In this document: piece after piece, positions 16,931 through 60,646 of the stretch
How positions within the stretch are numbered: the stretch's first letter is position 1
Layout: every line of letters starts with the position of its first letter
Assembly (NCBI GenBank): GCA_045639085.1
Contig: JAZUCM010000102.1
Coordinates: 3,178-67,177, forward strand
DNA length: 64,000 bases
Direction of reading: 5' to 3'
From: Candidatus Gastranaerophilus bacterium
GTDB taxonomy: Bacteria; Cyanobacteriota; Vampirovibrionia; Gastranaerophilales; Gastranaerophilaceae
The notes under the pieces: generated by a model
Told to the model about the DNA's origin: nothing
Seen by the model: only the letters and a program-made list of their open reading frames with translations
Databases searched by the model: none
Translations under genes and position numbers: made by a program

Positions 16931-17332
16931 ATGATACCTGATGATTTTTATGATAAATTAAATAAACCCGGAATTACGCCGTCAAAACAGGTTTTTCGTG
17001 GCGCGTGGAGTATTCTTTATGCACTGTTGGCTGTTTCTTTTGTGTTGGTGTTGTTGTCGCCTAACACTTTTAATAAAATGATGGCGATTTTTCTGTTCTT
17101 GGTTCAGTTGATTTTGAACTTCAATTGGGGATGCGTGTTTTTCGTTGAGCGAAAAATTAAAGAGGCGTTCTTTATTTGTCTGACGCTTTTGGTTTTGGTC
17201 GTTGCGATGACGGTGTTGTTTTTTAAACAATCAATATGGGCGGGAATTTTACAAATACCTTATTGTATTTGGTTAATCCTCGCCACATATTTGAATTATT
17301 TTATTATGAAAGAAAATCCAACAATACGCTGA
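16931..17332 (+). CDS. TspO/MBR-like membrane protein, apparently lacking the first TM helix
   Basis: FYDKLNKPGITPSKQVFRGAWSILYALLAV matches the conserved TspO WYxxLxKPxwxPPxxxFxxxWxxLY block. The protein is only 133 aa, and an in-frame stop 6 nt upstream precludes extension. Confidence 0.5.
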   Translation: MIPDDFYDKLNKPGITPSKQVFRGAWSILYALLAVSFVLVLLSPNTFNKMMAIFLFLVQLILNFNWGCVFFVERKIKEAFFICLTLLVLVVAMTVLFFKQSIWAGILQIPYCIWLILATYLNYFIMKENPTIR

Positions 17333-17351
17333 ATAAAACGCGCCAACTGAA

Positions 17352-32159: not shown

Positions 32160-32282
32160 AAAACTATTTTTACGAGGCCTGTTTTGTAAATTTTTTGTTA
32201 ATATTCAAGCACTCTCTTTATTCTCAAAATGATTTGTTTTATAATTGTGGATATCAAGGATATGTTTCACAAGGAGATAGGG

Positions 32283-44629: not shown

Positions 44630-47600
44630 TATAAATCACCTAATGAAGACGGCGTTTCAAAGAAATTGATGTTCAACAATTCTGAATCGATATCAGAAAG
44701 AGTTCTGCGTGGAGCAGCTTTTCTTAAATCGTCCATGTCTGTCATTAAGTCAACTTCGATACCATCTTTCTTGGCAACGGTTATGTCCAAACCGATACTT
44801 TGTAGTTCTCTAACGAGTACCTTGAATGATTCAGGAATACCCGGTCTTGGGATGTTGTCGCCTTTAACGATTGCTTCGTACGCTCTGTTACGTCCGTTGA
44901 CGTCATCGGATTTGATTGTCAACATTTCTTGGAGTGTGTAAGCCGCACCGTATGCTTCCAACGCCCAAACTTCCATTTCCCCGAATCTTTGGCCACCGAA
45001 TTGTGCCTTACCGCCAAGAGGCTGTTGTGTAACAAGTGAGTAAGGACCTGTTGAACGAGCGTGAATTTTGTCGTCAACTAAGTGGACAAGTTTCAAGATG
45101 TACGATAAACCAACTGCTACAGGTTCGTCGAATGTTTCACCTGTTCTACCGTCGATTAATTTAACTTTACCTGATGGAAGTACCCAGTCACAACCGGATT
45201 CTTTGATACCTTTGAGCAATTCTTCACGAGTTACGATTTCGGATTGGTTTTCGCCATATCTTTCATCGAATGAAGGTGCTTCGTAGTGGTTGCCTGTCAA
45301 GTATGCAGCCAAACCAAGCAATAATTCGTAAGTTTGACCAACGTTCATACGAGAAGGTACACCAAGTGGGTTTAATACGATATCAATTGGTGTTCCGTCA
45401 GGCAAGAACGGCATATCTTCTTTCGGTAATATACGTGATACGATACCTTTGTTTCCGTGGCGGCCTGAAAGTTTGTCACCGACTGAAACTTTACGTTTTT
45501 GTGCGATGTAAACTCTGATAACTGTGTTTGCGCCTGGTGGTAATTCATCACCTTTTTCTCTGTCAAATACCTTAACGTCAAGGACTCTACCGCCTTCTCC
45601 GTGAGGAACTCTTAGAGAATTATCTTTAACGTCTCTTGCTTTTTCAGCAAAGATTGCTCTTAACAATTTTTCTTCAGGTGGGTGTTCTGATTCACCTTTC
45701 GGTGTAACTTTACCTACCAAGATGTCGTCCGCAAATACTCTTGCACCGATACGAACAATACCGCGTTCATCGAGGTGTCTTAGGGCATCTTCTGAAACGT
45801 TCGGAATTTCGCGTGTAATTTCTTCAGGTCCAAGTTTTGTTTGTCTTGCGTCGATTTCTAATTTTTCAATGTGTACTGATGTAAATACGTCGTCGTGTAC
45901 GCATCTTTCAGATAGCAAAATCGCGTCTTCATAGTTGAAACCTTCCCAAGGCATGTACGCTACAAGAACGTTTTTACCTAATGAAAGTTCGCCGCAATTT
46001 GTAGATGCGCCGTCTGCGATAACTTGACCTTCTTTAACCTTGTCACCTTCTTTAACGATAGGTTTTTGGTTGATACAAGTGTCTTGGTTACTTCTTACAT
46101 ATTTCATCAACTGATGAACGTGAGGTACGCCTTGAAGGTCTGTGATAATAATTTCTTCGCCTACAACTCTTGTTACGGTACCGTCGCATTCAGCTATAGC
46201 AACCATGCCTGAGTCTTTAGCGGCTCTTTTTTCCATACCCGTACCGACAACTGGTCTTTGGGTTATCAAAAGAGGTACTGATTGACGTTGCATGTTTGAA
46301 CCCATCAATGCACGGTTTGCGTCGTCGTGTTCAATAAACGGAATCAATGAGGTCGCAACAGAGATAATCTGAATCGGAGAAACCCCGACGTAGTCGACCT
46401 TTTTAGATTCGCCCATTGTGAATTCTGAACGGTAACGAACAGGAACGTAGTCTTCTTTAAATGTTCCGTCTGCGTTCAATTTAACGTCAGCCGGCGCACA
46501 ACGGAAGTCTTCGTCTTCGTCCGCTGTCATATAAACAACTTCATCGGTTACGACACCATCTTTAACAACGAAGAATGGTGATTCAATGAAACCGTAGTCG
46601 TTAACTTTTGCGTGAGTAGCCAATGAACCAATCAAACCTGCGTTCGGACCTTCCGGTGTTTCAATAGGACAGATACGACCGTAGTGTGATGGGTGGATGT
46701 CACGGACTGCAAATCCTGCGCGTTCTCTCATCAAACCGCCAGGTCCAAGGGCTGAAATACGTCTTTTGTGAGTCAACTCAGCAAGTGGGTTGATTTGGTC
46801 CATGAATTGTGACAACTGTGAACTTCCGAAGAATTCTTTCAATGACGCGATTAACGGTTTTGTGTTCAACAAGTTTAACGGAGTCAATGTTTCAGAATCT
46901 TGAAGAGTCATTCTCTCTTTAACGATTCTTTCGATTCTTGAAAGACCTACTCTGAATTGGTTTTGAAGAAGTTCGCCAACTGAGCGAATTCTTCTGTTAC
47001 CCAAGTGGTCGATATCATCAACGGCACCTTCATCGTACGTCAAGTTAATCAAGTATTCGATTGACGCGACGATATCTTGGATTGTCAATGTTCTTTGGTT
47101 TTTAGGTATGTTAAGGTTTAATTTTTTGTTTAATTTGTAACGACCGACGCGACCGATGTCGTATTTTTTCTCATCAAAGAAACGAGATTCTAAGATTTGG
47201 CGTCCGCCTTGAGCAGATGCAGGATCTCCCGGTCTTAGTTTTTTGTAAACTTCGATTAATGCGTCGTCTGTTGTTTCTGTTGTATCTTTTTCTAATGTTT
47301 TCTTCAAAAATTCGAAGTGAGTGAACAAAGATTCCATTTCAGAAACCGTAATACCCATTGCTTTCAACAATGTAGTTGCAAGGATTTTTCTGTTTTTGTC
47401 TATCTTAACGTAAATTAAATCGTTGGAATCTGTTTCTATTTTTAACCAAGCGCCGCGGTTAGGAATCATTGTTGCATTATATAAGCGTTTGCCGGCAGGA
47501 GAGATTTCTCTCTTGAAGTAAACGCCAGGAGAACGAACGATTTGAGAAACGATAACACGTTCCGCACCGTTGACAATGAATGTACCTTTGTCGGTCATTG

Positions 47601-47949
47601 TCGGGATGTCTCCGATATAAACTTCTTGTTCTTTTATTTCACCGCTGTCACGGTTAACAAGTCTAACCATTACACGAAGCTGTTTTGCGTAAGTTGCGTC
47701 ATGGATTCTTGCTTCTTCAATTGTATACTTTGCATTGTCAAAAGTATAGTTCGGCAGGAAGTGTAACTCTAATCTTCCGGTATAGTCTTTTACAGGTGAG
47801 AATGAAAGTAATTCTTCTTTCAAGCCCTCTTTCAAAAACCATTCAAATGATTTTTTTTGCACTTCAATAAGATCAGGTAAGTCATCCAATCTGGTATGTG
47901 GAATACCCATTGGTGTTACTCGTTTTGCATATTCTGTGTTAGACATCAA
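44629..47949 (-). CDS. rpoB: DNA-directed RNA polymerase subunit beta
   Basis: 1106 aa with canonical beta blocks ([49 protein letters not shown]). Confidence 0.95.
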
Positions 47950-48300
47950 TTCACCTCGTCTATGTACGTACTATCTATATATAAAAATTTATTTATATTC
48001 GCTTATCTTCCATTTTAGGCACAATTTACCCAAGTTAAATTACACCATGTTTATTAATAATACACCGTCAATATTTATAGTCAATATAACACTATATAAA
48101 ATTCTATGTTTTCTTAAACTTTTTTAACATAGGGCAAAACTATTGGTATATGAGCGTTTTGTTGAAATTTGTCGGTGAAAACCATTGATTTTTCGTCTTT
48201 GCCGGCATGCCCGTATAATGATGGTTTTCGCCAAAGGCGGAAGGCCGTGACCAAGAGGATGGGGAGTAAGTGATTAACTATTTATCACATTTTCGGTTTC

Positions 48301-48349
48301 TTGTCCACATTTTTGTGGACATGTTTTTGTGGACAAAATTTTGTGTACT
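48301..48349. promoter_or_regulatory. Operator-like repeat cluster: a 20-bp perfect palindrome plus 14-bp-phased direct repeats (also DnaA-box-like)
   Basis: TGTCCACA tttt TGTGGACA spans 48302-48321. TGTGGACA recurs at 48328-48335 and a degenerate TGTGTACT at 48342-48349. Repeat starts are at 48314, 48328 and 48342, a 14-bp period. TTGTCCACA differs by one base from the DnaA-box consensus TTATCCACA. Confidence 0.5.
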
Positions 48350-48495
48350 CAATAGTGTGTCAACTGATTTGGCGACTTTTCAAATTTTTAATATCCGCTA
48401 TACTGAAAATGTGATGTGCAAATTGACAAGTGAACAAGAGAGAAAATTCAGTCCATAAACTAGTTTTATTCATATAAAATCCGATTATCTTAACG

Positions 48496-48526
48496 CGAGG
48501 ATTTTATCCTAAATCCTCGTTTTTCT
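48496..48526 (+). terminator. Terminator-like hairpin in the non-coding flank upstream of the phage-like cluster
   Basis: cgaggattt tatcct aaatcctcg tttttcttt: a perfect 9-bp stem followed by a T-run. Confidence 0.5.
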
Positions 48527-48600
48527 TTAATCATGGAATTATTATTAATGTTCCTTTAGGATTTTTTGCTAAACTGGTAATAGGTATGAAAAAGAGGTAA

Positions 48601-48837
48601 ATGATGAATGTAACACCGCAGGAACGTATGGCATTGCTGTATATTTTGCTTGGTTATACGGACAAAGAAATTGCGAAAAAAATGAAAATTAGTTATGCGA
48701 CTGTAAGAACTTATCTGCTGCGAGGAACGCTGAAACTTTCTGCTAGAAATACTACTCACGCAGCATTTAAATATCTTTTGAAATTGTCTCCTGAAGTTTA
48801 TTTAAAAACGGTAAAGGAATTACAAGAAAGCTTATGA
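48601..48837 (+). CDS. LuxR/GerE-type single-domain HTH transcriptional regulator (78 aa)
   Basis: TPQERMALLYILLGYTDKEIAKKMKISYATVRTYL matches the LuxR C-terminal HTH pattern (LTxRExxVLxLxxxGxxxKEIAxxLxISxxTVxxH). A GAGG SD lies upstream. Confidence 0.75.
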   Translation: MMNVTPQERMALLYILLGYTDKEIAKKMKISYATVRTYLLRGTLKLSARNTTHAAFKYLLKLSPEVYLKTVKELQESL

Positions 48838-49322
48838 GAAGAATAATTTTACACTGGACTGCCGGAAAATATGAGCCGAATGAATGCGATTTAGAACATT
48901 ATCATTATTTGGTTGATGGTTGTGGGCACGTTCACAAGGGTAAATTTTGCGTTGCGGATAACGTTGTTTGCCGTGCGGGTAAATATGCTGCTCACACTGG
49001 CGGCGGAAATACCGGGTCAATTGGTGTTGCAATGTGCGCAATGTTTGGGTTTAAAAATAAAATAGCTGTCGGAGATTATCCGATTATGCCTATTCAATTT
49101 GAACGAACAATGAAACTTTGTGCTGAACTTTTGAAAAAATATAATCTTCAACTTGGAAACGGTACTGTTCTTACACATTATGAGTTTGGGCAAGCTCATC
49201 CAAGGACGTCCAGTTACGGAAAAATTGATGTTACTTATCTGCCGCCATATCCTAGTGTCAGGGCTGAGGATGTTGGGGCTTTTATTAGGTCAAAAGTTCG
49301 TTGGTATCTTGAACGGTTATAG
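48834..49322 (+). CDS. N-acetylmuramoyl-L-alanine amidase-like lysis enzyme (amidase_2/T7-lysozyme-like)
   Basis: IILHWTAG..., HYHYLVDGCGHVHKG and AAHTGGGNTGSIGVAMC resemble amidase_2/PGRP blocks. I could not identify the third zinc ligand. The start overlaps the LuxR stop (ATGA). Confidence 0.6.
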   Translation: MRRIILHWTAGKYEPNECDLEHYHYLVDGCGHVHKGKFCVADNVVCRAGKYAAHTGGGNTGSIGVAMCAMFGFKNKIAVGDYPIMPIQFERTMKLCAELLKKYNLQLGNGTVLTHYEFGQAHPRTSSYGKIDVTYLPPYPSVRAEDVGAFIRSKVRWYLERL

Positions 49323-49347
49323 TGGAAATATTACCTAGGGAGGAAAA

Positions 49348-50871
49348 ATGGAAGTATCTTATTACAATTTATCAGGCGGAATTAATCTGAGCCTGACAAA
49401 AACTGAATTGGGACTTGATACAAAAAGAATGTATTGGGCTGATTCAAAAAACATTGAGTTATTGAAGCATAACGGTATCAAAAAGCAGCGCGGTAACGCT
49501 ATTTATTGTGAATTACCCGAAAAAGAAGAAATCACCGGGCTGCACCAATTTACTCATGAGAATGAGTACAAACTTGTTATAACTACAATTAGCGGAAAAA
49601 TTTACGTTTATGATGTTTCTAACAAGAGTTTTTCGACGGTTAACTTGGTTTTGTCAGGCAAAAAGCCTCAATTTAAAAACTTTTTAAACGGTTTTTTGTT
49701 GATGAGTGAAAATGACAAAATGCGTTATATTAAAAATGACGCAAATTATACTGTTGTTGATTGTAACTTAAAGACGCTTGCCGGTGTTGATTTAACCGGT
49801 GGAATTATTACGACTTACCGTGGTAGGGTTTGGGTTGCGAAAGGCTCAGCAATTTATTATTCTGCGTTGGGAACTTATGATAATTTTACAGAAGAAAATG
49901 ATGCCGGATATATCAATGATTTTCATACGAACACTGATACAATAACAGGTATTGCCGAATATAAAGATTATTTGGCAATTTATAAGAAAAATCAGGTTTA
50001 TTTGTTGAGTGGAAGCTCGCCGGATGATTTTGCTATTCAATTATTTGCGGATAAAGGAACTAAGGCCCAGCGTTCATTGGTGAATGTTGACAATCGACAG
50101 TTTTTCTTGTCTTCCGGTGGGATTTTTTCGCTTGAAGAGGCTGGAGTTCTTTTGCAAATTCATGTAGGTTCTGAAATTTCAACCAAAATTAAGCCGGAAT
50201 TTGATGAGTTTGATGAAAATCGTTTGGCGCAAAGTATTTGTTTGCATTACGAAAAACGAAATCAGATGTGGTATTTTCTCCCGTATGCGGATGAACCTTA
50301 TTTTAAAACCATTTGGATTAACGATTATGTTTTAAAACTTTGGTATAAGCGAGTTGTTCCGCAAAATATATTAGGGGCGTGCGTTTTTAAAGGAGATATT
50401 TTGACCTTTGACGATGATGGAAATATTTATATCGAGGATTTTGGCAATGATTTTTGCGGGAAACCTGTTGATTTTATGTGGAAATCTCCGTTTTTGGCGT
50501 TAAAAGATGCCCATCATCGCAAGCTTATTGATGAATTTTATTTTGTACTTGATTGTGAGTATGATAATAATTTTAATTTTTCTGTTTATAAAAATTTTGA
50601 TGATGGTTATCCTGACGACAAAGAAGTTGTTCACAATATTAACTATGAACATCTTTTATGGGCAGATGAGGCTTCGCCTGATTATCTTCCGTGTAAATGG
50701 GGAGAGGATGATTTCCGGGTGCCGATTTGGTCTGTAAACTCAGAAACGCTTGAAAAAGTTGAGATTTCTGAGAGTAATTATGCCGTTCAAATTTGCATTG
50801 AGGGCAACGAACTTGTTCATAATTGCGGGATTATCGGTTTGCAATTCCGCGAAATATTTAACGATGATTAA
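49348..50871 (+). CDS. Phage virion structural protein candidate (507 aa; possibly tail tube/nozzle-like)
   Basis: GGAGG SD. N-terminus YYNLSGGINLSLTKTELGLD... and repeated beta-strand-rich blocks. The call rests on context between the lysis enzyme and the capsid gene and is otherwise unsupported. Confidence 0.4.
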   Translation: MEVSYYNLSGGINLSLTKTELGLDTKRMYWADSKNIELLKHNGIKKQRGNAIYCELPEKEEITGLHQFTHENEYKLVITTISGKIYVYDVSNKSFSTVNLVLSGKKPQFKNFLNGFLLMSENDKMRYIKNDANYTVVDCNLKTLAGVDLTGGIITTYRGRVWVAKGSAIYYSALGTYDNFTEENDAGYINDFHTNTDTITGIAEYKDYLAIYKKNQVYLLSGSSPDDFAIQLFADKGTKAQRSLVNVDNRQFFLSSGGIFSLEEAGVLLQIHVGSEISTKIKPEFDEFDENRLAQSICLHYEKRNQMWYFLPYADEPYFKTIWINDYVLKLWYKRVVPQNILGACVFKGDILTFDDDGNIYIEDFGNDFCGKPVDFMWKSPFLALKDAHHRKLIDEFYFVLDCEYDNNFNFSVYKNFDDGYPDDKEVVHNINYEHLLWADEASPDYLPCKWGEDDFRVPIWSVNSETLEKVEISESNYAVQICIEGNELVHNCGIIGLQFREIFNDD

Positions 50872-50932
50872 TTATTTTGACCCACTCATTTTATGTTACA
50901 TACACTAGTTTAAAACGAAAGGAAAAGTGAAA

Positions 50933-51787
50933 ATGTCTACAAACACAAATTCTTACTCAGCTTTTATTCCTGAAATTTGGAGTAAAAAATTGTCAACAAT
51001 GTTGGAGAAAAAGTGTGTGATGCTCCAATGTGTCAACAAAAATTATGAGGGTGAAATCTCAGCGCAAGGTGACAAAGTTAAAATTATTACGCCTGCTCAA
51101 GTTGCGATTTCAACTCTTGGCTCTTCTGCGATTACTTACGACGAACTTGAACCTACTTCTCAAGAGCTTGTCATTGACCAGAAAAAATTCTTTGCGTTCA
51201 AAATTAATGATGTTGCGCAAGTTCAGGCAAATTCTAACATTATGGAGGCACATTTAGAAAACGCAAGAAGAGCTATTGAACAAGTTCAAGACGCTTATTT
51301 GCTTTCTCAACATACTTATGTAGCCGAAAACAATACTGTCGGTACGGAAGAAGCACCTATTTCATTGGATAAGACGACTATTTACAAACATTTCGTTGAT
51401 TTGGCTATGAAGTTGAAAAATTCAGACGCGGTTGGAAATGGTCAACGCCCTTGGGTTGTTATCAATCCGCTTGTTGAATCTTTCTTGCTTCAAAGTACAG
51501 AATTTATCGGCGCGCACAATGTTGCTGATGAAACGCTCAGAGAAGGTGCTATCGGTAGAATTGCCGGCATGGATGTTTTGGTTACAACAAATTTGACCGA
51601 CGTTGATGGCAAATTGTACGTGCTTGCAGGTACTAACGAAGCGATTACTTTCGCGTCTCAACTCGCTAAAATTGAAACTTTACGTGATAAAGATTCTTTC
51701 TCTGATTTAGTTAGAGGCCTATATCTTTATGGTGCGAAAACTGTTCAACCGGCTGCGTTGGCTAAAATGGTCGTTACTGCTGCGTAG
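50933..51787 (+). CDS. Major capsid protein candidate
   Basis: N-terminus STNTNSYSAFIPEIWSKKLSTMLEKKCVMLQCVNKNYEGEISAQGDKVKII resembles N-termini of HK97-fold/P22-coat-like capsid proteins as I recall them. Size (~284 aa) and position fit. Confidence 0.55.
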   Translation: MSTNTNSYSAFIPEIWSKKLSTMLEKKCVMLQCVNKNYEGEISAQGDKVKIITPAQVAISTLGSSAITYDELEPTSQELVIDQKKFFAFKINDVAQVQANSNIMEAHLENARRAIEQVQDAYLLSQHTYVAENNTVGTEEAPISLDKTTIYKHFVDLAMKLKNSDAVGNGQRPWVVINPLVESFLLQSTEFIGAHNVADETLREGAIGRIAGMDVLVTTNLTDVDGKLYVLAGTNEAITFASQLAKIETLRDKDSFSDLVRGLYLYGAKTVQPAALAKMVVTAA

Positions 51788-51807
51788 TGCTGATTAAGGA
51801 GAACAAA

Positions 51808-52053
51808 ATGCTCGAAAGTTTTAAAAATAAGATTTTGGAATTGGCCAAGCAGGCTGTTCATTCCGTTGAAAATGAATTGAGTGGCGAAACGGGTAAAACC
51901 AAAAAGATTGCGGCGATTAAATATGTGATTTCTCGTTTGCCCGGGCCAAAATCATTGAAATATTTACTGGGTTTTGTTCTGTCGGTTTTTATTGACAGTG
52001 CTGTTGAAATTGCGGTTTTTTACATGAATAACCGCGTAGTAGTTGAGGAATAA
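51808..52053 (+). CDS. Small hypothetical phage protein (81 aa)
   Basis: AAGGAGA SD. GETGKTKKIAAIKYVISRL...IDSAVEIAVFYMNN loosely resembles the C-terminal part of LL-H-type phage holin family proteins. This is a weak recollection. Confidence 0.4.
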   Translation: MLESFKNKILELAKQAVHSVENELSGETGKTKKIAAIKYVISRLPGPKSLKYLLGFVLSVFIDSAVEIAVFYMNNRVVVEE

Positions 52054-52056
52054 CAA

Positions 52057-52734
52057 ATGAACGAACAAGATAAAATTTTACAAACAAGAGATTTGTCAGA
52101 TGCCGTGACTCAAAGTGCTGCTGAATTGTCTTCAGGTGAGAAAACTCCAAAGGCTGACTTGTCAAAAACACAATCAGAAGTGGAAAATCTTGTGAACAAT
52201 GACCTCGGTGTCATTCGTTCCTTGATGGGAATGGGCGTTGTAACTCGTGAACAAGGACATAATTTAATGAAACAAGTTATACAAAATGCGTACACGAATG
52301 TTACTACTAAACAACACGAAGTTCAACTTTCTTCCCCCGCGACCGAATCTGTGTCGAAGAAAGATGCTTTCTTGGAGTTTACAACTTCTAACCCGAATTT
52401 CTTTAACAGATCAGGGCGTGAAGATGTTTTGTCTTACTTAAAGAATTCTAATGTGGACTTTGACAAAGATGAACTCTTGCAAATATCTAAACTCATTGAG
52501 GCTGTTGAGCAAAATGCAGTTGACAGATATTTGAAACAAATTGAGTATGGTAAAGCATTAAATGACGAAAACGCGATCGCTAAGCAAAGACTTTCCGCAA
52601 ATGCGCAAGTGTCTTCTGCGGCTGAAAACAATGGGGCTTTTACACGTGCTCAAATCGGCAAAATGAGTGGGGATGAATTTACCAGAAATGAAGCGGCTAT
52701 TATGGAGCAACTTCGTAAAGGCTTAATCAGATAG
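52057..52734 (+). CDS. Scaffold-like acidic/helical phage protein candidate
   Basis: 225 aa, charged and helical, adjacent to the capsid gene. The C-terminus MSGDEFTRNEAAIMEQLRKGLI resembles scaffold C-termini. Confidence 0.35.
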   Translation: MNEQDKILQTRDLSDAVTQSAAELSSGEKTPKADLSKTQSEVENLVNNDLGVIRSLMGMGVVTREQGHNLMKQVIQNAYTNVTTKQHEVQLSSPATESVSKKDAFLEFTTSNPNFFNRSGREDVLSYLKNSNVDFDKDELLQISKLIEAVEQNAVDRYLKQIEYGKALNDENAIAKQRLSANAQVSSAAENNGAFTRAQIGKMSGDEFTRNEAAIMEQLRKGLIR

Positions 52735-52811
52735 GAAAATCATCGTGTGAGTCGTTGGGGGAATTTCCCCCTTCGGCTTTACAAATTCCCCGCAATAAAA
52801 TAGGAGTGATT

Positions 52812-53456
52812 ATGAATTTTTTAGATATTATCAACAAATGTTTGGTTGAGTTGAATTATAAGCAAGTTAATTCCTTCGCCGAACTTACCAAAAATGAACA
52901 CAAAAAAATAATGAGCATTTTAAATGTTCTAAATGCTGAGATTTGTCAATATGCAAAATGGAATTTCCTTGTTCGCAAGGCCGTTCTTACTCTTCCGGCG
53001 CATACTGCGGAAATAGAAAATTCTATCAACGGCAGAATTTCTCAGGTATTAATTGATTCGCAGAATTTTGAATTTCATCAAGATGCGGGTGAAATTCTCG
53101 CTGGGAAATGCAAAGGTAAAAACCTTTTTACTACGTACGATAGCAAACTTCTTTTCTCCAAAACCTTTGACGTGGATAAGGAAATTGAGATTATTTACTA
53201 TACCTATGACCATGTGATTGATGATACAGGCATGGAAAAGGATATTTGGGAGCATGTTTCTGATGAGTCCTTAATCCCGAAACCTTTTTGCGAGCCGATT
53301 TTAGTCTATGGAACTTGTATGCGTTTAAAAGGAAACCAACAGCACGTACGTTTTAACTACTGGGTTACGATGTACAAAGAGGCGTTGGCAAATATGGTGT
53401 CGCGATGTTCGCTTGATGCGGGTTTTGCACCGGTCGTAAGGCTGAAAAGAAGTTGA
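52812..53456 (+). CDS. Hypothetical phage structural protein (adaptor or tail-tubular-like candidate)
   Basis: Start at MNFLDIINKCLVELNYKQVNSF with an AGGAG SD. The N-terminal pattern is reminiscent of podoviral adaptor/tubular proteins. Low certainty. Confidence 0.35.
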   Translation: MNFLDIINKCLVELNYKQVNSFAELTKNEHKKIMSILNVLNAEICQYAKWNFLVRKAVLTLPAHTAEIENSINGRISQVLIDSQNFEFHQDAGEILAGKCKGKNLFTTYDSKLLFSKTFDVDKEIEIIYYTYDHVIDDTGMEKDIWEHVSDESLIPKPFCEPILVYGTCMRLKGNQQHVRFNYWVTMYKEALANMVSRCSLDAGFAPVVRLKRS

Positions 53457-53639
53457 TTGTTATTGTTTTTACTTTTTTATATCGTAAATTTAAGGACCAT
53501 ATCATATAAATTCGCAAAGAAAAACAGGAAGTTTGTATTCCCCCTGTTAAGATTTACACTAGCCGAAATATAAATAGCATGCTTATTATACTACTTACAT
53601 GCAAAAATATCAAATTATGTAAAGAAATTGAAATAAATT

Positions 53640-54074
53640 ATGACTAAAAATATCACAATTCAACAAAAAAAGTTTATTGAAGAATATATCAAAACCCTTG
53701 ATGGAGAAGCGTCTTGCAGGTATGCAGGCTATAAAGTAACAAATCTTAAAGAATTGGCAAATAAAATGCTATCTGATAAGAAAATCGTTGCTGCTATCAA
53801 ACACGAACTCCTCTCCCGCATCCCTTCCCTTAGGGTCGAAAAAGGCTATATTGTACAAAAACTTTTACAAATTATTGAGTTCTCTCTCGAGGAAGAAGAT
53901 ATTCTCGATAAAGATGGTTCCCTCACCGGTAAGCGCAAGCTACGCGATACTTCGACAGGACTTAAAGCCCTCGAAAATCTCTGTAAGCACCTTGGATTTG
54001 TCGCCGGGCAAGATGATTCCTACAAAGAGGCCAAAATTATTACAATATCTAATCTCGATGAAAATAAATTATAA
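53640..54074 (+). CDS. Terminase small subunit
   Basis: ITIQQKKFIEEYIKTLDGEASCRYAGYK matches the Terminase_2-type N-terminal HTH pattern (LTxKQxxFxxEYxxxxNxxxAxxxAGYS). Confidence 0.7.
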   Translation: MTKNITIQQKKFIEEYIKTLDGEASCRYAGYKVTNLKELANKMLSDKKIVAAIKHELLSRIPSLRVEKGYIVQKLLQIIEFSLEEEDILDKDGSLTGKRKLRDTSTGLKALENLCKHLGFVAGQDDSYKEAKIITISNLDENKL

Positions 54075-54086
54075 GGAAAGGTTCAA

Positions 54087-54446
54087 ATGAAAGATATTAA
54101 CAATTCAGACATGGAAAAAATGCTTTTAACTGGTAAGTCGCTTGATGAACTTATTCAGATGAAAATTCAAGAAGACTACACTTCCATCCGTAATATTCCG
54201 CCTAAAAAAATACAAAAAATCGAAGACATTTCAAAACTCTCTAAAGAAATTATTTTTTCTAAATCGAGTGTCTTTAAGGTGTTTAATAAAAGCACAAGAA
54301 TGGAAAGTTTTATTAACGGAGTGCAAGCAGAAGCGTTGCTTGGGTTGCAAGATAACCTCAGAGATTCTCTTATCTCAGGTAAAATTCGTGCTTTCGTCTC
54401 TGGTGATTCGTATGTGGAATTTATGTATGCAAAAACAGCAGTTTAG
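54087..54446 (+). CDS. Hypothetical protein (119 aa)
   Basis: An ORF with an AAGGAAAGG SD. Its 3' end overlaps the GNAT ORF by 20 nt. I recognise no motif. Confidence 0.45.
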   Translation: MKDINNSDMEKMLLTGKSLDELIQMKIQEDYTSIRNIPPKKIQKIEDISKLSKEIIFSKSSVFKVFNKSTRMESFINGVQAEALLGLQDNLRDSLISGKIRAFVSGDSYVEFMYAKTAV

Positions 54447-54984
54447 GTTTGAAAGGCTTATAATTAAGCCGACTTGCGGTGTTTTTGAAAATGTAAAGTA
54501 TTTCCCGCAAGTTTTACATCTATATAAAAAGTACTTGAGAAACCTGGAAGATGATTTTTCTTCTTTTTACAAATTCACGTATGCCAGTCTATTCAGATTT
54601 ATCGAAAAAACTTCTCCGCATTTCTATCTGGTGCTGCTTGATGATGAAGTTTGTGGTTTTTTCTGTTTAGAAAATATTATCGGGACAAACTCTCATTTAC
54701 ACTCGGCTGAAGTCGTAACGTGTTTTGCACAAAAATATTGGGGAACTTTTACCAAGTACGCAGGCAAGATTTTTAGGGATTTTTGTTTTGAAGTACTGGG
54801 CATTTATAAATTAAAAGCCCTCATTTATCCGCAAAATTTTAGGGTTAAAGCGATATTGAAGGCTTGTGATTTTGATAAAGAAGCACATCTTAAAGGTGAA
54901 ACATTAAAAAATGGTGTCCGGCAAGATATAGAAATATATTCTGTTTATAATCCCGGGCCGAACAAGGAGGAAATATGCAATTAG
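54427..54984 (+). CDS. GNAT family N-acetyltransferase (RimJ/RimL-like)
   Basis: From MQKQQFRFERLIIKP... The blocks FYLVLLDDEVCGFFCLENI, QKYWGTFTKYAGKIFRDFCFEVLGIYKLKALIYPQNFRVKAILKACDFDKEAHLK fit the Acetyltransf_3 pattern. I reject the upstream part of ORF 54268 as an out-of-gene extension. Confidence 0.55.
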   Translation: MQKQQFRFERLIIKPTCGVFENVKYFPQVLHLYKKYLRNLEDDFSSFYKFTYASLFRFIEKTSPHFYLVLLDDEVCGFFCLENIIGTNSHLHSAEVVTCFAQKYWGTFTKYAGKIFRDFCFEVLGIYKLKALIYPQNFRVKAILKACDFDKEAHLKGETLKNGVRQDIEIYSVYNPGPNKEEICN

Positions 54985-56627
54985 AAACAGAAGATTTAAC
55001 CATTCAACTTGATGAGCTACAAGAAAGCTATCTTGTGGATAGAATAACCAGAAAATTTGATAATTATGAAGGTGGAAGAAGTTCGCAATTGGCGGATTTA
55101 GCCTCTGTCAGGAATGCGATATATGATGCAAAAGCTCCGTTGCGTGGAGCTTGGAACTCTAAAATAGAACTTCCCAATATTTACGAACTTGCTCAGACTC
55201 TTAAAGCTCATATTACTCAAAATATTTATTCGCATCCTGAGACAATGTTTGATGTCGCAGGTTGTGATGAACTATCTCAAGGGTTTGCGAATAAACAAAA
55301 GGCTATGCTTGTTAAAACTTTTGAGGAAATGGGGTTTGAAAATGAACTTGAAAAAATCGTTGATGGTATTATCGAAGCCGGTGAAGCAACGCTTTTTGTC
55401 GGTTGGAATACCAAGATTAAGCGCACTCGCAGACCTCAAACGTTTGAGGAAAAACTTTTAAACAACAACAATAAGCCTTTTGTTCTTGAAGAGAAAGTTG
55501 TCTATGACAATGCAAAAGTGCGTTTCATTAGGCCCGAAGATTTTGTGTTCGACAAATTTGATGCTGAGAATTGGGATAGTTGTTCCAAAATTTGTCGCTC
55601 ATTTAAGACAATTGATGAAATTAAATCTGATAAATTAAATAATTATTTGAATGATTCGAAACTGGAAGACTTGAAAGGGGTGGTGGCAAAAAATAGTAAA
55701 CGTTCAGCGTCATTTGATAACAATAAATTGGAAGTATTTGAGTTCTTGGGAGATATTGAACTTGCTGACGGCACGTTATTGAAAAATTGGTTTATAACAG
55801 TTGCCGGCAGAAAACATATTATTCGTTTCGAGAATAATCCTTTTGTAATAAATCCGTTTATTCACGCCAATATTATTGAAAATCCGATGACAGGACGTGG
55901 AATTTCGCCGATAAGGGTTGCGCTCACGTTGAATGATATTTCATCAGAAATTTTGAATAAGCAACTGGATGCGCTTGCACTTACGATGAATCCGCCTTAT
56001 CTTGCGCCGAAAGGCTGTTTTTACGGCAAACAAGAGATTACTCCGGGTAAAATTATCGAGTATGATGCTGCTCTTATGCCAACATCGCCGACTCCGTTAA
56101 GTTTTGATAAAGCCATGGTTGGTTGGGATTTCTTGAATTATTTTAAAACTACAATCGAAAGTGCAACGGGTGTTTTCAAAAATATGTCAGGGAATATTCA
56201 AGAAACTGCGCGTACTGCAACAGAATTAAATTACAGCGCAAGCGGCCAGGAATCCCGTTTAAATATGATATTAGAAACAATCAATCGTAAAATTATCATC
56301 CCGGTTGTTGAGAAAACAGCGGATATAATTGCCAATTTCAAACTGGGAGCTGAAACGATTTCGGTTTGTGAAGGCGGAAAGGTTTGTTTCTTAGAGATTG
56401 ATGATGAAATCAGAAATGCAAATTACATTTATCGTTACGGGGATAGAAAAGCGATTTTTGAACGTAAATCAAGGTTTAAGGAATTATTCGAAGTTGTTCA
56501 AGCTTTTGCGCAGGTTGATGTGATTGCACAAAATATTAATTGGCTGGAATGTTTCAAATTTGCGCTCGAACAGTACGGAATTGAAAATGTAAATAACTTT
56601 TTACTTGAAAAAGAAACTATTTCTTAA
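54975..56627 (+). CDS. Portal protein candidate (550 aa)
   Basis: Size, acidic N-terminus and position immediately upstream of TerL. AGGAGG SD. The start overlaps the end of the GNAT ORF by 10 nt. Confidence 0.5.
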   Translation: MQLETEDLTIQLDELQESYLVDRITRKFDNYEGGRSSQLADLASVRNAIYDAKAPLRGAWNSKIELPNIYELAQTLKAHITQNIYSHPETMFDVAGCDELSQGFANKQKAMLVKTFEEMGFENELEKIVDGIIEAGEATLFVGWNTKIKRTRRPQTFEEKLLNNNNKPFVLEEKVVYDNAKVRFIRPEDFVFDKFDAENWDSCSKICRSFKTIDEIKSDKLNNYLNDSKLEDLKGVVAKNSKRSASFDNNKLEVFEFLGDIELADGTLLKNWFITVAGRKHIIRFENNPFVINPFIHANIIENPMTGRGISPIRVALTLNDISSEILNKQLDALALTMNPPYLAPKGCFYGKQEITPGKIIEYDAALMPTSPTPLSFDKAMVGWDFLNYFKTTIESATGVFKNMSGNIQETARTATELNYSASGQESRLNMILETINRKIIIPVVEKTADIIANFKLGAETISVCEGGKVCFLEIDDEIRNANYIYRYGDRKAIFERKSRFKELFEVVQAFAQVDVIAQNINWLECFKFALEQYGIENVNNFLLEKETIS

Positions 56628-56733
56628 TCATTTTTTGCCGCGTGTTTAAATCTCGTCTTTATACCCTATACTCTAACTCCTTTCTTACATTTACCCCTCA
56701 CGCGGCTTTTTTTATTATTTGCAGGAGAAATTT

Positions 56734-58023
56734 ATGGAATATAATTTGTTAAAATCGCAGCGGGAGTTTTTGGAAATTCCTCACAATTATAGTCTTGATG
56801 TTGCTGTATATCAAGGTGGATATGGTTCAGGTAAAACTTTTGCAGGGTCATTGTTGGGGATTTTGTTAGCGCTTAAATTTCCCGGAATTCGTGGGCTTGT
56901 AGGAGCGCAAACTTATACCCTAGTAAGGGACACGACGCTTCATACATATTTTGAACATTTTGAGAATATGGGTTTTGTCGAAGGTAAGGACTATGAGTGG
57001 TCGTCTTCGTTGCAAAAAATAATCTTTCCGAATACTTCTGAAATTCTATTTCGTCATTTTGAGGAACCGAATAAGTTAAAATCCTTGAATCTTGGCTTTG
57101 TAGAGATTGAGGAGATGTCGGATATTCCTTATGATACCTTTAAAATGTTGTTAAGCCGTATGCGGCAAAAAATCCGCAAATCTTGGAAAAATTTCAAGTA
57201 CCGTATTTTCGGGCATACCAATCCAGAGATGCAACGTGGTTGGGTTTATAAGACTTTTGTTGAAAACCCAAGCGAAAATTATCGTTTGATTTGTGCTCCG
57301 ACAACCCAAAATATTTATTTGCCTGAGGGTTACTGTGAGGAACTCAAAAAGCTTTATGATGAAAATTATTATAATATTTTTGTGTTGGCGCAAAACGGTG
57401 AGTACAGCAAAGGGCTTGTTATAAAAGACTTTACAGACGAAAATATTATGGATATTAAATACCAACCGGAGTTAGATTTGCATATCTCTTGCGATTTTAA
57501 CGTTGATCCAATGGCGTGGGTTTTAGCGCACAAGACGGATGATAAAGTTTTTTATTTTGACGAAATCGTAATGGAAAATACGACTACTCAAAAGGCTTGT
57601 GAGGAATTTTGTCGTCGCTATCCTAATCATAAAGGGCGAATTATTGTTAATGGTGACGCTTCCGGCGACAATAGAAGTTGTACAAGTGAATATACCAACT
57701 ACGTCATCATCAAAAAAACTTTACTCAAACACGGTTATGACCTTGAAATAAAAATCAAACCTTATAATCCGCCTATAAAAAACAGGATTATGGCGTTTAA
57801 TGCAAAAGTTCGTTCTGCGGACGGTGAAGTTTGTCTTTTTGTTGACAAAAAATGTGAAAAACTTCTCTATAATATCTATAATTTACGTTATAAAGAAGGT
57901 TCGTCGAAGATAGATGTTCCGACGTATCAACAGATTAAACAAACGCACGAGTTAAAGTTTTTGTCTCACCCGATTGACGCTGCATCGTATTTAGTAGATT
58001 TTTATTGGCCGATAGTGTTATAG
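56734..58023 (+). CDS. Terminase large subunit
   Basis: Walker A QGGYGSGKTFAG. Walker B-like LGFVEIEEMSD. Nuclease-domain acidic motifs ISCDFNVDP, IVNGDASGD and HPIDAASYLV. AGGAG SD before ATG at 56734. Confidence 0.8.
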   Translation: MEYNLLKSQREFLEIPHNYSLDVAVYQGGYGSGKTFAGSLLGILLALKFPGIRGLVGAQTYTLVRDTTLHTYFEHFENMGFVEGKDYEWSSSLQKIIFPNTSEILFRHFEEPNKLKSLNLGFVEIEEMSDIPYDTFKMLLSRMRQKIRKSWKNFKYRIFGHTNPEMQRGWVYKTFVENPSENYRLICAPTTQNIYLPEGYCEELKKLYDENYYNIFVLAQNGEYSKGLVIKDFTDENIMDIKYQPELDLHISCDFNVDPMAWVLAHKTDDKVFYFDEIVMENTTTQKACEEFCRRYPNHKGRIIVNGDASGDNRSCTSEYTNYVIIKKTLLKHGYDLEIKIKPYNPPIKNRIMAFNAKVRSADGEVCLFVDKKCEKLLYNIYNLRYKEGSSKIDVPTYQQIKQTHELKFLSHPIDAASYLVDFYWPIVL

Positions 58024-58061
58024 GATGTTAGGGCGATAAGTTCATTAAGAAAGAGGTTTTC

Positions 58062-58292
58062 ATGGAGCAAATTTTACAGTTATCACCATTAATTTTAGTT
58101 GTTATGATGTTTTTTATTCAACATAAAATTTTTGTCACCCCTGAACAGTTGGAGAAAAAACATCGTGAGATATTAGAAAGTGTTGAACAACACTTTGTGT
58201 CTGTTCACTGTTTCACCGACCTGAAAGAACAAGTCGGTGAAATGAAAGATAAAATTGATAAAATTTATGATTGCTTAATTACTTTTAAGTGA
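58062..58292 (+). CDS. Small membrane protein (76 aa; holin- or spanin-like candidate)
   Basis: N-terminal TM helix (LSPLILVVMMFFI) followed by a charged helical tail. GAGG SD. It is the last ORF of the cluster and overlaps the convergent TerC-like gene by 18 nt. Confidence 0.4.
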   Translation: MEQILQLSPLILVVMMFFIQHKIFVTPEQLEKKHREILESVEQHFVSVHCFTDLKEQVGEMKDKIDKIYDCLITFK

Positions 58293-59321
58293 TTTTTTGT
58301 TGTGAATTATTGATGAAACTAATGAAAGAACGATAAAGACCAGGCCGATAATCCCTGTGATAACCTCAGGAACTTCGATTTTTGTTGAAATCAACATAAT
58401 AATCGCGAGAGCCCCGATTGCCCAGTGTGCACCGTGTTCAAGGTATAAAAATTTCGCCAAAGTCTTTTTCTCAACCAGCATAACGGTCAGTGAACGCACA
58501 AACATCGCACCGATGGCTAATCCGATGGAAATTATGATGATGTCTTTGCTTAGCGCGAACGCTCCCAAAACCCCGTCAAGAGAGAACGAGGCGTCTATTA
58601 ATTCCAAATACATAAAAGAAACAAATCCGCCACAAGCTACATTCTGCGCACATTTGCTAACGCGTTGCTGTTCCCGTTTTTCAAGATAATGCGACAAGCC
58701 GTCAATTGCAAGGTAGGTTATTACGCCGAAAATCCCCGAAATAATGATTGACATTTTTGTTTCTATGTCCGGGGTATAGTTTTGCGTAATCATTAATGCA
58801 ATCAATGCGACGATAACTTCTATTCCTCTAATATTGTCAAGGTGAGAGATCCAATTTTCAATAGGTTTTATCCAATGAATGGTTTTTTCGTGGTCGAAAA
58901 AGTAATGCAAAAACAGCATTAGAAGGAAAATTCCGCCGAAAGATACAATTGGCGCATGGGTAAGGTGTAGATAGTGCGCGTATTGTTCTGAATCATTAAG
59001 AGCGATGCGCGCGACATCCCCCATACTGAGGTTCGCAAAAATCGAAACAACAAGTATCGGGAATAAAAATCTCATCCCAAAAACCGCAATTGCGATACCC
59101 CAAGTTAAAAATCGTTGGCGCCAAATTTTGGACATTTTTTCCAGTTTCATCGCATTTACAACTGCGTTGTCGAATGATAAACTTACTTCTAACACCGCAA
59201 GTATTGCGACGATAAAAATACTTGTCCAGCCGGAGCCGGGATGAACGTGTTCTGCCCAGAAATATGCAGCAATTATGCCCAGAATGGTTACAAGGTAAGA
59301 ACCAAAGAAATATTGTAACAT
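58275..59321 (-). CDS. TerC-related integral membrane protein (DUF475-like)
   Basis: Polytopic protein with EVSLSFDNAVVNA and ELIDASFSLDGV repeat motifs, typical of the TerC/DUF475 superfamily. Its start overlaps the miaB stop (TAATG). Confidence 0.7.
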   Translation of the reverse strand: MLQYFFGSYLVTILGIIAAYFWAEHVHPGSGWTSIFIVAILAVLEVSLSFDNAVVNAMKLEKMSKIWRQRFLTWGIAIAVFGMRFLFPILVVSIFANLSMGDVARIALNDSEQYAHYLHLTHAPIVSFGGIFLLMLFLHYFFDHEKTIHWIKPIENWISHLDNIRGIEVIVALIALMITQNYTPDIETKMSIIISGIFGVITYLAIDGLSHYLEKREQQRVSKCAQNVACGGFVSFMYLELIDASFSLDGVLGAFALSKDIIIISIGLAIGAMFVRSLTVMLVEKKTLAKFLYLEHGAHWAIGALAIIMLISTKIEVPEVITGIIGLVFIVLSLVSSIIHNKKSLKSN

Positions 59322-60646
59322 TATATCAATTCTCCATTAATGTACCAGGTTTTTGCGCCAACTATTTTTACGTTGACAAATTCACCTGTGCGGTCTGTAT
59401 CGCAAGGAATATGGACTATTTTGTTGTTTCTGGTTCTGCCGGTTATAACATTTTTGCCTTTGTGATTTTCGAAACTTTCTACCAAAACTTCCATTTCTCG
59501 TCCGACGAATTTTTTATTTGATTTTAGACAATTTTCTTTGACCTTATCGTTGAGGCGTTTCAAGCGCTCGAATTTTGTTTCTTCATCGATGTATTTGTCA
59601 ACCCATTTTGCGGCGACGGTTTTTTCTCTCGGTGAATATGCCGCGGTGTTTGAATAATCCAATTCAAATTCATCAATTGCGGTAAGGGTTTCGACGAATT
59701 GTTCTTCAGATTCACCCGGAAATCCGGCGATAAAATCGCTTGTAATCGTTACATCTTTAACTTTATCGCGAACTTTTTGTACAATTTTTGCATATTCTTC
59801 GCGGTTGTAACGGCGATTCATTTTTTTGAGAACTTCACTTGAGCCTGATTGCATTGGAATATGGAAGTATTCACAAACCTTATCGAGTTTTATTGCGGTT
59901 TCTATGAGTTCGTCGCTGATATCTGTCGGATAAGATGTTACAAAACGGATTCTAAACTGTCCGTCAAGCGCGTTTAAATCTTCTAAAAGTTGCGCAAGGC
60001 GGTAGTGCTTGTCTTTAAAATCTTTGCCGTAGCTATCAACGTTTTGGCCAAGTAGCGTTATTTCTTTAAACCCTTGAGCCAGCGCGTCTTTTGCTTCTTT
60101 TATGATTATTTCCGGCAATCGAGAACGCTCTCGGCCGCGAGTGTAAGGTACGATGCAATATGTGCAGAAGTTGTTGCAACCTTCTGTTATCGGTATCCAA
60201 GCATTAACACTTTTTACTCGTTTTATTGGATAATCTTTTGCAATGTTATCTTCAACTGAATGGCTTTCTTCGCACTCACAAACCTTTTCGCCAAGATTGA
60301 CACGTTTGATGATTTCCGGCAGCTTGTAAATGTGGTGTGTGCCCAATACAAAATCTATATAATGCGCACGCTTAAAAAGGGCTTCGCCTTTTTGTTGCGC
60401 AACGCAACCGCAAAAACCGATTTTTAAATCCGGTTTATTTTTCTTCCATTTGCCCCACAATCCGATTGCGCTGTATGCCTTGTCTTCACTAAGTTGGCGA
60501 ATAGAACAAGTATTAATCATTAATAAATCGGCTTCTTTGGGGTCGTTAGTCTCTTCATAATCGAAGTGAGAGAGCATGCCAAGCATTCTTTCTGTGTCTG
60601 ATTTATTCATTTGGCAGCCCATTGTTTCTATATAAACTTTTTTCAT
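59321..60646 (-). CDS. miaB: tRNA-2-methylthio-N6-dimethylallyladenosine synthase (radical SAM methylthiotransferase)
   Basis: N-terminal MTTase Cys triad context (TMGCQMN, NTCSIR, GCVAQ), radical SAM CNNFCTYCIVP and a TRAM C-terminus. Confidence 0.85.
   Translation of the reverse strand: MKKVYIETMGCQMNKSDTERMLGMLSHFDYEETNDPKEADLLMINTCSIRQLSEDKAYSAIGLWGKWKKNKPDLKIGFCGCVAQQKGEALFKRAHYIDFVLGTHHIYKLPEIIKRVNLGEKVCECEESHSVEDNIAKDYPIKRVKSVNAWIPITEGCNNFCTYCIVPYTRGRERSRLPEIIIKEAKDALAQGFKEITLLGQNVDSYGKDFKDKHYRLAQLLEDLNALDGQFRIRFVTSYPTDISDELIETAIKLDKVCEYFHIPMQSGSSEVLKKMNRRYNREEYAKIVQKVRDKVKDVTITSDFIAGFPGESEEQFVETLTAIDEFELDYSNTAAYSPREKTVAAKWVDKYIDEETKFERLKRLNDKVKENCLKSNKKFVGREMEVLVESFENHKGKNVITGRTRNNKIVHIPCDTDRTGEFVNVKIVGAKTWYINGELI

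Follow-up and report, generated by a model that had tools for sequence, protein, structure and literature searches.

A block of 13 genes at 48601-58292 of the 64-kb stretch of DNA analysed here (64,000 nucleotides from Candidatus Gastranaerophilus bacterium, hereafter the window) is proposed, on the strength of its sequence, as a well-founded candidate for an order-wide domesticated element of podovirus type in gut Melainabacteria that resembles a gene transfer agent (GTA). The block would be the domesticated, vertically inherited and GTA-like descendant of a mini-podophage of the SU10/P22 class of about 17 kb, kept by selection across the Gastranaerophilales, and this reading is held with moderate confidence. 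Its parts differ in strength: domestication and selective maintenance are very probable, the formation of DNA-filled particles is predicted as likely from the gene content, and GTA-like transfer of host DNA is modestly favoured by the same kind of data. The initial annotation of this DNA had preferred a domesticated particle-forming element (GTA-like, of podovirus type) to a recent prophage, and that preference is supported by colinearity in 80 species, by low ratios of non-synonymous to synonymous substitution rates (dN/dS) and by co-divergence with the host.

When one genome per species was scanned, 230 matching stretches were found, and the comparisons described here used the best 80 of them. 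All of these best 80 belonged to the Gastranaerophilales/Melainabacteria, the complete chromosomes CP017245.1 and OZ007029.1 among them. Wherever the contig was long enough, all 13 genes were found, in one orientation and in unchanged order, with none of the 80 loci departing from colinearity; the block was single-copy in every one of the 80 best-matching species genomes and spanned 9.2-14.4 kb (median 10.3 kb). The open reading frames (ORFs) had been described initially as uninterrupted, and no truncated ORF was detected away from contig edges in any of 81 loci. For the capsid protein, more than 100 homologues with at least 79% identity were found, many of them on contigs of 0.1-1.3 Mb, and those with a named source were mostly labelled Melainabacteria or Ca. 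Scatousia. Searches for sequences identical to the MCP and the adaptor of the window gave no entry. In a metagenome scan for empty sites that used the neighbouring gene ZupT, the 24 loci without the block nearby were also without the surrounding synteny.

Conserved presence, synteny and purifying selection had been named in the initial annotation as support for domestication; colinearity in 80 species was accompanied by approximate pairwise dN/dS ratios (NG86) of 0.02 to 0.33 for the 13 genes, with the minimum of the block in the gene for the large terminase subunit (TerL) (Table 1), compared to 0.03-0.125 for neighbouring host genes. Ratios far below 1 were also obtained within the window's own clade (dS above 1), which is devoid of the upstream gene fam12 described below, and in the closest pair.

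The surroundings of the block were then compared. The order in most species is FliI, ZupT, a radical-SAM gene, fam12, the block, fam15 and SecA; in some species a glycosyltransferase and DUF475 follow fam15, and in the window clade DUF475, MiaB and MgtC come directly after the block. Flank synteny is partial and decays as divergence grows. For the 29 loci sharing FliI and ZupT, protein distances of the cluster correlated with those of the host proteins (Spearman 0.56-0.81), as did those of FliI with those of ZupT (Spearman 0.76). The concatenated distance matrices of cluster and host flank gave a Mantel r of 0.84, not reached in any of 2000 permutations, and their neighbour-joining trees had 20 of 26 splits in common (0.2 expected). 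The host genes used for this co-divergence are physically linked to the block, and therefore co-transfer of block plus flank is inseparable from strict vertical descent.

Comparison with the nearest relative found, L227 (GCA_054267215.1), which has the same rpoB/block/DUF475 context and an RpoB 99% identical to that of the window, revealed mosaic nucleotide identity over 46639-60473, in the block and in the host flanks. Segments of 99-100% identity (49889-50888 and about 51700-57600) alternated with segments of 77-88% (49389-49888, 51139-51638 and 58389-58888). Such a mosaic in the alignment points to frequent homologous recombination, in tracts of 0.5-6 kb, meaning that imported DNA recombines at the locus. 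Between the genes for the tail adaptor and the small terminase subunit (TerS), L227 is longer by 366 bases.

With respect to gene content, the virion module of the SU10/P22 class is present, consisting of portal, adaptor and nozzle, an HK97-fold capsid, TerS, TerL and a scaffolding protein, the last of which we infer. The capsid-like, TerS and TerL calls made initially were backed by database families. The major capsid protein (MCP, g04) matched phrog_267 (1.6e-49) and MCP gp6 in the Protein Data Bank (PDB; 8e16_I, 4e-26) and was 76-89% identical across the 80 species; no close relative was found among cultured phages, the best MCP being 42% identical (Microcystis phage MaAM05) and the best TerL 28%. 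TerS (g08) covers positions 2-130 of the 141 of the Terminase_2 profile and matched phrog_51 (2.6e-15), and TerL (g12) matched Terminase_3 (5e-20) and phrog_2 (2.9e-32), with a Walker A motif GGYGSGKT in its translation. The protein noted initially for its portal-like size (g11) proved to be a portal of SU10 type, well above the Pfam cutoff, with further matches to phrog_332 (2e-32) and to the cyanophage A4 portal in the PDB (3e-11). Searches of Pfam, PHROG and PDB profiles returned no family for g06, whose alignment shows an N-terminus that varies and two C-terminal helices that hardly change; from its position and conservation pattern it is presumably the scaffolding protein. No Pfam or PHROG family was matched by g09. 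As for the GNAT annotated initially (g10), the assignment holds through an orthologue above the Pfam cutoff (Acetyltransf_4, 28.6 vs. 24.3 bits), whereas the window copy itself stays below it (Acetyltransf_3, 2e-4, 22.4 vs. 25.4 bits), and its likely start was moved to 54427 (185 aa) following the gene call of the L227 orthologue. In a divergent copy of the block (L226, GCA_029782595.1), a 334-aa MCP with an insertion is encoded at 10001-11005 and the terminase region at 15890-17736 is called as two genes (389 and 226 aa), which suggests that its TerL carries an insertion or is split.

The two ORFs at 49348-50871 and 52812-53456 had been singled out for structure searches, which were run with AlphaFold2 models and Foldseek and revealed podovirus nozzle and adaptor folds. 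Their initial description as structural or particle genes thus stood, but both are tail parts, so the view of the block as a set of head, packaging and lysis genes had to be revised: as nozzle and adaptor are encoded, the block specifies a head plus a short tail and not a head only. The model of g03 (predicted local distance difference test score, pLDDT, 77.6; predicted template modelling score, pTM, 0.80) had the Pa223 tail as its best PDB match (9nwi_Y, E 1.3e-19, template modelling score 0.69), followed by P22 gp10, Sf6 gp8, VP1, SU10, Pan3 and T7 gp12. That of g07 (pLDDT 82.5) matched cyanophage A4 tail tubular protein A first (9k09_d, 2e-8) and then KHP30, VP1, GP4, Pa223, SU10 and T7 gp11; PDB profile searches prior to structure prediction had been marginal for this protein, and an orthologue with 53% identity (P0284) exceeds the Pfam cutoff for SU10_adaptor (30.6 bits, cutoff 27).

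The LuxR-type helix-turn-helix (HTH) and amidase-like products named initially were both recognised by profiles, g01 matching GerE (2.2e-9) and Sigma70_r4_2 (2.6e-8), and g02 matching phrog_5867 endolysin (2.6e-30) in addition to Amidase_2 (Table 1). The small membrane protein g05 gave holin matches of low significance (Phage_holin_6_1, 1.4e-3; PHROG holins, 3.5e-4 and 1.3e-3). Finally, g13 is probably part of the lysis cassette, because its homologue in the free phage described below lies directly upstream of the amidase gene.

The limits of the block were examined on the window sequence. As annotated initially and borne out by the ORF listing and translations, its thirteen ORFs lie on one strand with small gaps or overlaps. 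A Pfam scan of the flanks found rpoB, rpoC1 and rpoC2 on the left and DUF475/TerC-like, MiaB-like and MgtC genes on the right, all on the minus strand, in agreement with the placement between two such operons described earlier; the split rpoC fits a genome of the cyanobacterial lineage. The overlap reported between the last ORF and the 3' end of the TerC-like gene amounts to 18 nt, and host genes abut both block ends in the window and in L227. Neither tRNA nor Rfam matches were found across the whole window, a repeat search found no att-like direct repeats bracketing the block, and the 13 products, searched against Pfam and PHROG, gave no match to an integrase, recombinase, repressor-switch or replication family, in keeping with the first reading of the sequence. 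The integrase, CI/Cro-type switch and replication genes of an intact temperate prophage are thus not contiguous with the structural genes. The GC content of the block, 36.4%, is close to the 38.8% in the rest of the window, whereas the free phage described below has 46.4%.

The likely ancestor was approached through an uncultivated phage, L129 (IMGVR_UViG_3300031555_010071), of 17,135 bp and 46.4% GC, with a 129-nt terminal direct repeat, which indicates a complete genome. It encodes homologues of 12 of the 13 window genes and of fam12 in a different order, with the g01 HTH as the missing one, at identities of 57% (MCP), 62% (TerL) and 51% (portal), and the GNAT homologue adjoins TerL. It also has a DnaD/O-like replication initiator and an HTH/excisionase-like regulator, and neither a further large structural gene nor an additional fibre was found in it; from this gene content the block is the entire virion-plus-lysis module of such a phage. 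The comparison of the two sequences shows a phage of about 17 kb as the apparent ancestor type and places the lost part exactly at the replication and regulation module. Besides L129, IMG/VR held 58 contigs with this capsid, nearly all of them 4-18-kb fragments or provirus calls of the block and none with terminal repeats or circularity, and a further IMG/VR scan found no second phage of this kind. L129 also contains repeated intergenic GC-rich hairpins (for example GGTGCGTCAAACGACGCACC) at 6722-7058, 10092-10185, 5963-6005 and 12099-12141, one of which sits just after the fam12 homologue.

A regulatory leader precedes the block. The promoter-like motif GACTTTTCAAA-N14-TATACT was present in 45 of 77 loci, where it keeps a fixed spacing to the amidase gene, of 805-816 nt in loci with fam12 and 422-460 nt in those without it. 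The leader box TCATATAAAATCCGATTATCTT showed no mismatch in any of the window-clade loci examined, and its core ATTATCTTAC is kept order-wide, at the 3' end of fam12. When sequences were folded one by one, all of the 42 loci had a hairpin of 6-11 bp (free energy, dG, -10 to -15 kcal/mol) followed by a T-run at the same position, although 39 different stem-loop sequences were found among them; the structure of this terminator-like hairpin is therefore conserved while its sequence varies. Folding was done per sequence instead of with RNAalifold, which on a MAFFT alignment of the leaders returned 4 pairs with the differing stems out of register. A generic scan for promoters and terminators gave counts equal to those of shuffled controls and was of use only after comparative alignment. 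Most species have the order promoter, fam12, box and terminator, HTH and remaining genes, and in the window clade fam12 was cleanly lost with promoter and terminator both kept; upstream regions in this clade are strikingly conserved despite saturated coding dS. The palindrome TGTCCACA-N4-TGTGGACA upstream of the promoter is specific to the window and was not conserved at the other loci, about 25 of which have a different palindrome, TCCATG-N4-CATGGA, some 25 nt upstream of the same promoter motif. Two more leader elements were seen: one after the terminator (48535-48550, GGAATTATTATTAATG), kept across the order as GGAAATATTATGAAT, and a short one (48418-48428, GCAAATTGACA) kept within the window clade. 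In phage lambda, the promoter PR' is followed by the terminator tR', which is read through by means of the antiterminator Q, and a leader with promoter and terminator ahead of lysis and morphogenesis genes may be analogous to this arrangement.

Table 1. Position of the block, its genes (g01 to g13) and its leader elements in the window, with pairwise NG86 dN/dS of each gene.
Feature	Position	Strand	Detail	dN/dS
Block, 13 genes	48601..58292	+	9.7 kb	
Candidate operator: palindrome TGTCCACA-N4-TGTGGACA and third half-site	48302..48335	+	from sequence; upstream of promoter	
Promoter-like element GGCGACTTTTCAAA-N14-TATACT	48371..48404	+	-35 at 48377-48382, -10 at 48399-48404	
Leader box TCATATAAAATCCGATTATCTT	48470..48491	+	single occurrence in the 64-kb window	
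Intrinsic-terminator-like hairpin and T-run	48495..48530	+	10 bp, dG -13.3; operon leader	
g01 small LuxR/GerE HTH, sigma-70-region-4-type regulator	48601..48837	+	Pfam profiles	0.19
g02 N-acetylmuramoyl-L-alanine amidase (endolysin)	48834..49322	+	Amidase_2 6e-13	0.18
g03 tail nozzle/hub, beta-propeller, P22 gp10/T7 gp12 class	49348..50871	+	507 aa; AlphaFold2 and Foldseek	0.125
g04 MCP, HK97-fold family, P22-coat-like annotation	50933..51787	+	alternative GTG start 50927	0.10
g05 small membrane protein, possibly holin-like (weak evidence)	51787..52053	+	88 aa; profiles	0.29
g06 scaffolding-like protein	52057..52734	+	225 aa; position and conservation pattern	0.33
g07 tail adaptor, tail tubular protein A/T7 gp11 class, SU10_adaptor	52812..53456	+	214 aa; AlphaFold2 and Foldseek	0.12
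g08 TerS, full-length Terminase_2	53640..54074	+	Pfam 2.6e-11	0.092
g09 conserved protein	54087..54446	+	119 aa; present in 71 loci and L129	0.24
g10 GNAT-fold acetyltransferase-like	54427..54984	+	mechanical ORF start 54268	0.245
g11 portal, SU10 type	54975..56627	+	SU10_portal 5e-15, 55 bits (cutoff 30)	0.068
g12 TerL	56734..58023	+	mechanical ORF start TTG 56719	0.023
g13 protein with N-terminal membrane helix	58062..58292	+	76 aa; translation	0.15

In other species the block is accompanied by additional genes, for which Pfam and PHROG matches were absent or uninformative. The first, fam12, is located immediately upstream of the HTH gene and specifies a Cys-rich product of about 130 aa; it was found in 59 of 81 loci (for example L007:7156-7596) as well as in L129 (5500-5925). 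In the window clade it is either dispensable or, for the window genome, encoded elsewhere, and the remaining 13 genes are under purifying selection after its loss. The second, fam15 (for example L007:17769-19490), is a fast-evolving protein (dN/dS 0.41) of about 566 aa whose N-terminus is conserved (MGLAASQARFLAITSRK...) and whose C-terminus is a coiled coil. Its gene is the immediate downstream neighbour of the block in 45 loci and is absent from the window and from L129; it was considered as a fibre and rejected as part of the element, as L129 is without a homologue. At one locus (L154) everything from fam12 to fam15 has been inverted together. Three insertion hot spots were seen in other species, between adaptor/TerS and g09, between portal and TerL and between TerL and g13 (for example L018:16270-17106, L006:18673-19377 and L010:14646-15110), and the genes in them may be capsid-targeted cargo or morons. 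Among these families, fam17 comprises small proteins that are secreted, fam21 resembles lipases and has a GHSEG motif, and in fam33 a DUF6973 domain is linked to a second version of the C-terminal segment of the scaffold. At their C-termini, both fam21 and fam33 carry a KWVTINGNHxLIK motif.

If the block works as a GTA-like element, transcription would start at the conserved promoter with its upstream palindromic operator, and the intrinsic terminator of the leader would gate entry into the operon. Read-through would give the g01 HTH, capsid, scaffold and portal proteins, from which procapsids would be built, and TerS and TerL would fill these with chromosomal DNA in a headful mode; with neither replication nor excision, the packaged DNA must be chromosomal. 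Adaptor and nozzle would then close the portal as a short tail, the holin-like proteins and the amidase would lyse the producer cell, and the particles would carry host DNA to related cells, where it would recombine. Packaging of chromosomal DNA is the most economical reading, as replication and excision are missing and terminase and portal are the most constrained gene products. In common with GTAs, the block is a chromosomal cluster of structural and packaging genes with no replication, integration or immunity genes, and it has been conserved vertically over a long time under purifying selection. A more ambitious version, in which the block is an active GTA that was independently domesticated at or near the base of the Gastranaerophilales, has a head of about 17 kb as predicted from the phage relative, is gated in a lambda-Q-like manner and spreads itself along with hot-spot cargo by homologous recombination, is considered less likely than not.

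Several points weigh against the GTA-like reading. Particle production, DNA content and transfer are all deduced for an element known from its genes. The 80 loci are the best matches to the block and do not give its share of the whole order, and dS is near saturation in most pairs, which makes dN/dS approximate. In addition, fam12 is absent from the 64-kb window and from the window clade, though it belongs to the ancestral set, and no receptor-binding fibre, tailspike or needle/plug was recognised in the 13 genes or in the large unannotated ORFs of the window. Classically, a GTA head is too small for its own genes, and this is probably not the case here, since the related free phage packages about 17 kb and the block measures 9.7 kb; homology does not reveal the T number, since relatives of this MCP form far larger heads as well. 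Lastly, as TerS matches Terminase_2 in full including the N-terminal part, packaging could be site-specific and not random.

Comparison with known systems places the block closest to FpGTA of Faecalibacterium prausnitzii, a podovirus-like, GTA-like element of a gut bacterium with experimental support (Nat Commun 2026; PMC12946183). FpGTA consists of a 10.5-kb operon and a 5.5-kb operon, the latter a second locus with baseplate, fibre and lysis genes, and produces 40-nm particles with DNA fragments of 8.4-8.9 kb; its TerS was reported to be without an obvious DNA-binding domain (PMC12946183). The earlier belief that a podovirus-type GTA would be novel is thus outdated. The likeness, which rests on the published description of FpGTA (MCP RCH50849.1, portal RCH50851.1) and not on sequence comparison, lies in the chromosomal location of an operon of roughly 10 kb, in its genes for TerS, TerL, portal, scaffold and capsid, in products homologous to those of short-tailed phages and in the lack of prophage functions. 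In contrast, FpGTA belongs to the Bacillota and is conserved across its host genus, whereas the present block is found in another phylum and is conserved at order level; FpGTA needs two loci, whereas regulator, tail and lysis genes are here in a single one; its TerS differs from the full-length Terminase_2 protein of the block; and its particles and DNA have been measured, whereas the block is known from genes alone.

The RcGTA-type elements of Alphaproteobacteria are also domesticated head, tail and packaging clusters, vertically inherited under purifying selection, with no replication or integration genes and with release by lysis, but they are siphovirus-like, comprise about 15 kb plus several unlinked loci under CtrA and quorum-sensing control, and have a T=3 head that holds about 4 kb, too little for their own genes; no sequence relationship to the block was found in the searches run. 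The activator that turns on RcGTA, GafA, contains sigma-like domains, and g01 may be analogous to it. L129 is similar to the block in 12 of 13 genes and fam12 and differs in its replication initiator, its regulator, its gene order, its GC content (46%) and the lack of g01. The short tails of SU10, P22/Sf6, T7 and cyanophage A4 have portal, adaptor and nozzle folds matching those of the block, but these phages also possess fibres or tailspikes, needles and ejection proteins, and no such part was recognised in the block. PBSX-type defective prophages of Bacillus are likewise chromosomal and non-replicating, package host DNA and lyse the producer, but they are myovirus-like, about 28 kb long, act mainly as bacteriocins and have no homology to the block.

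Among the alternatives, the one that survives best is a hard-wired lateral transducer, in which TerS would use a packaging (pac) site in or near the block and directional headfuls would run into the chromosome, preferentially moving the block and downstream genes instead of random DNA. The TerS match to the whole of Terminase_2 speaks for it, unlike the TerS reported for FpGTA; that of RcGTA is likewise not known to have an obvious DNA-binding domain. The block cannot excise, the head capacity judged from the 17-kb relative exceeds the block length, and cargo accumulates in the block of other species, which would be favoured if the block transferred itself. Nevertheless, the analysis identified no pac site, amplification of the template in situ would require a replication module that the block does not have, and the co-phylogeny with host genes reveals no excess mobility of the block over its flanks. 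Such a transducer is considered unlikely.

Slightly less likely still is domestication for another role, be it programmed lysis, interference with related phages by mixed assembly, or delivery of protein cargo through scaffold-like domains. The variable genes inserted elsewhere, the fusion of a scaffold segment in fam33 and the motif common to fam21 and fam33 would fit such a role, and a related free phage lineage does exist (L129). However, the window block has no cargo gene, and the most constrained genes are those for TerL, portal and TerS (dN/dS 0.02-0.09), a pattern pointing to selection for DNA packaging.

A capsid-forming phage satellite mobilised by a helper, an option raised by the initial annotation, is improbable. 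Capsid-forming phage-inducible chromosomal islands (cf-PICIs) are reportedly compact, at about 10-15 kb, and have capsid, portal, TerS and TerL genes of their own; they are said to be equipped with an integrase and att sites, with a replication module and with repressor/derepression control, to borrow helper tails and to be patchily distributed. The compactness of the block, its own capsid, portal and terminase, the lack of replication genes and the listing of such regions as proviruses in IMG/VR are compatible with a satellite, but none of the hallmarks of cf-PICIs (integrase and att sites, replication module with a rep/pri gene, helper-responsive repressor, missing tail genes) was found. On the contrary, adaptor, nozzle and lysis functions are encoded within the block itself; its distribution is not patchy, with one colinear copy in each of the 80 species examined; it co-diverges with host genes; and no circular or terminal-repeat contig occurred among the 58 in IMG/VR besides L129.

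A decaying prophage remnant kept by chance, the null hypothesis of the initial annotation, would agree with the missing replication, integration and immunity genes and with the loss of fam12 in the window clade, but is highly improbable, being contradicted by the absence of truncated ORFs in 81 loci at a divergence at which neutral evolution would give frameshifts, by dN/dS well below 1 for all 13 genes, even in the fam12-less clade with dS above 1, and by the conserved regulatory leader.

The Gastranaerophilales, gut bacteria related to the Cyanobacteria, are widespread and nearly all uncultured, and to our knowledge their means of gene exchange are not known. The GTA-like reading of this order-wide maintained cluster would provide a concrete candidate mechanism for it and would add an independent domestication of a podovirus, with bearing on how general phage domestication is outside the Alphaproteobacteria. 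In the literature searched, no such element was described for Melainabacteria or Cyanobacteria, in accordance with the initial statement that no GTA was known in a cyanobacterial-relative lineage. If the block were an active GTA, it would be the first GTA of the cyanobacterial phylum and, at about 10 kb, more compact than any other self-contained one known, and a head of about 17 kb could carry the whole element plus flanking homology. The conserved promoter-terminator leader offers a handle on its regulation.

Copies of the block are filed publicly as 'Caudoviricetes sp.' proteins (P0094, P0200) or as uncultivated viral genomes of IMG/VR (L081-L127), and several metagenome-assembled genomes bearing it are mislabelled Fusobacterium, Clostridium or Muribaculaceae. 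From the provirus and 'Caudoviricetes sp.' labels in IMG/VR and nr, virome catalogues and host-prediction sets probably hold this host-owned element as a false virus.

Elsewhere in the window, five large ORFs had no Pfam-A or PHROG match at the thresholds used: 26744-31165 (-), 36263-38572 (+), 10750-12633 (+), 23585-25345 (-) and 9263-10588 (+), encoding 1473, 769, 627, 586 and 441 aa, respectively. A further ORF at 32229-36194 showed a weak likeness to YhdP.

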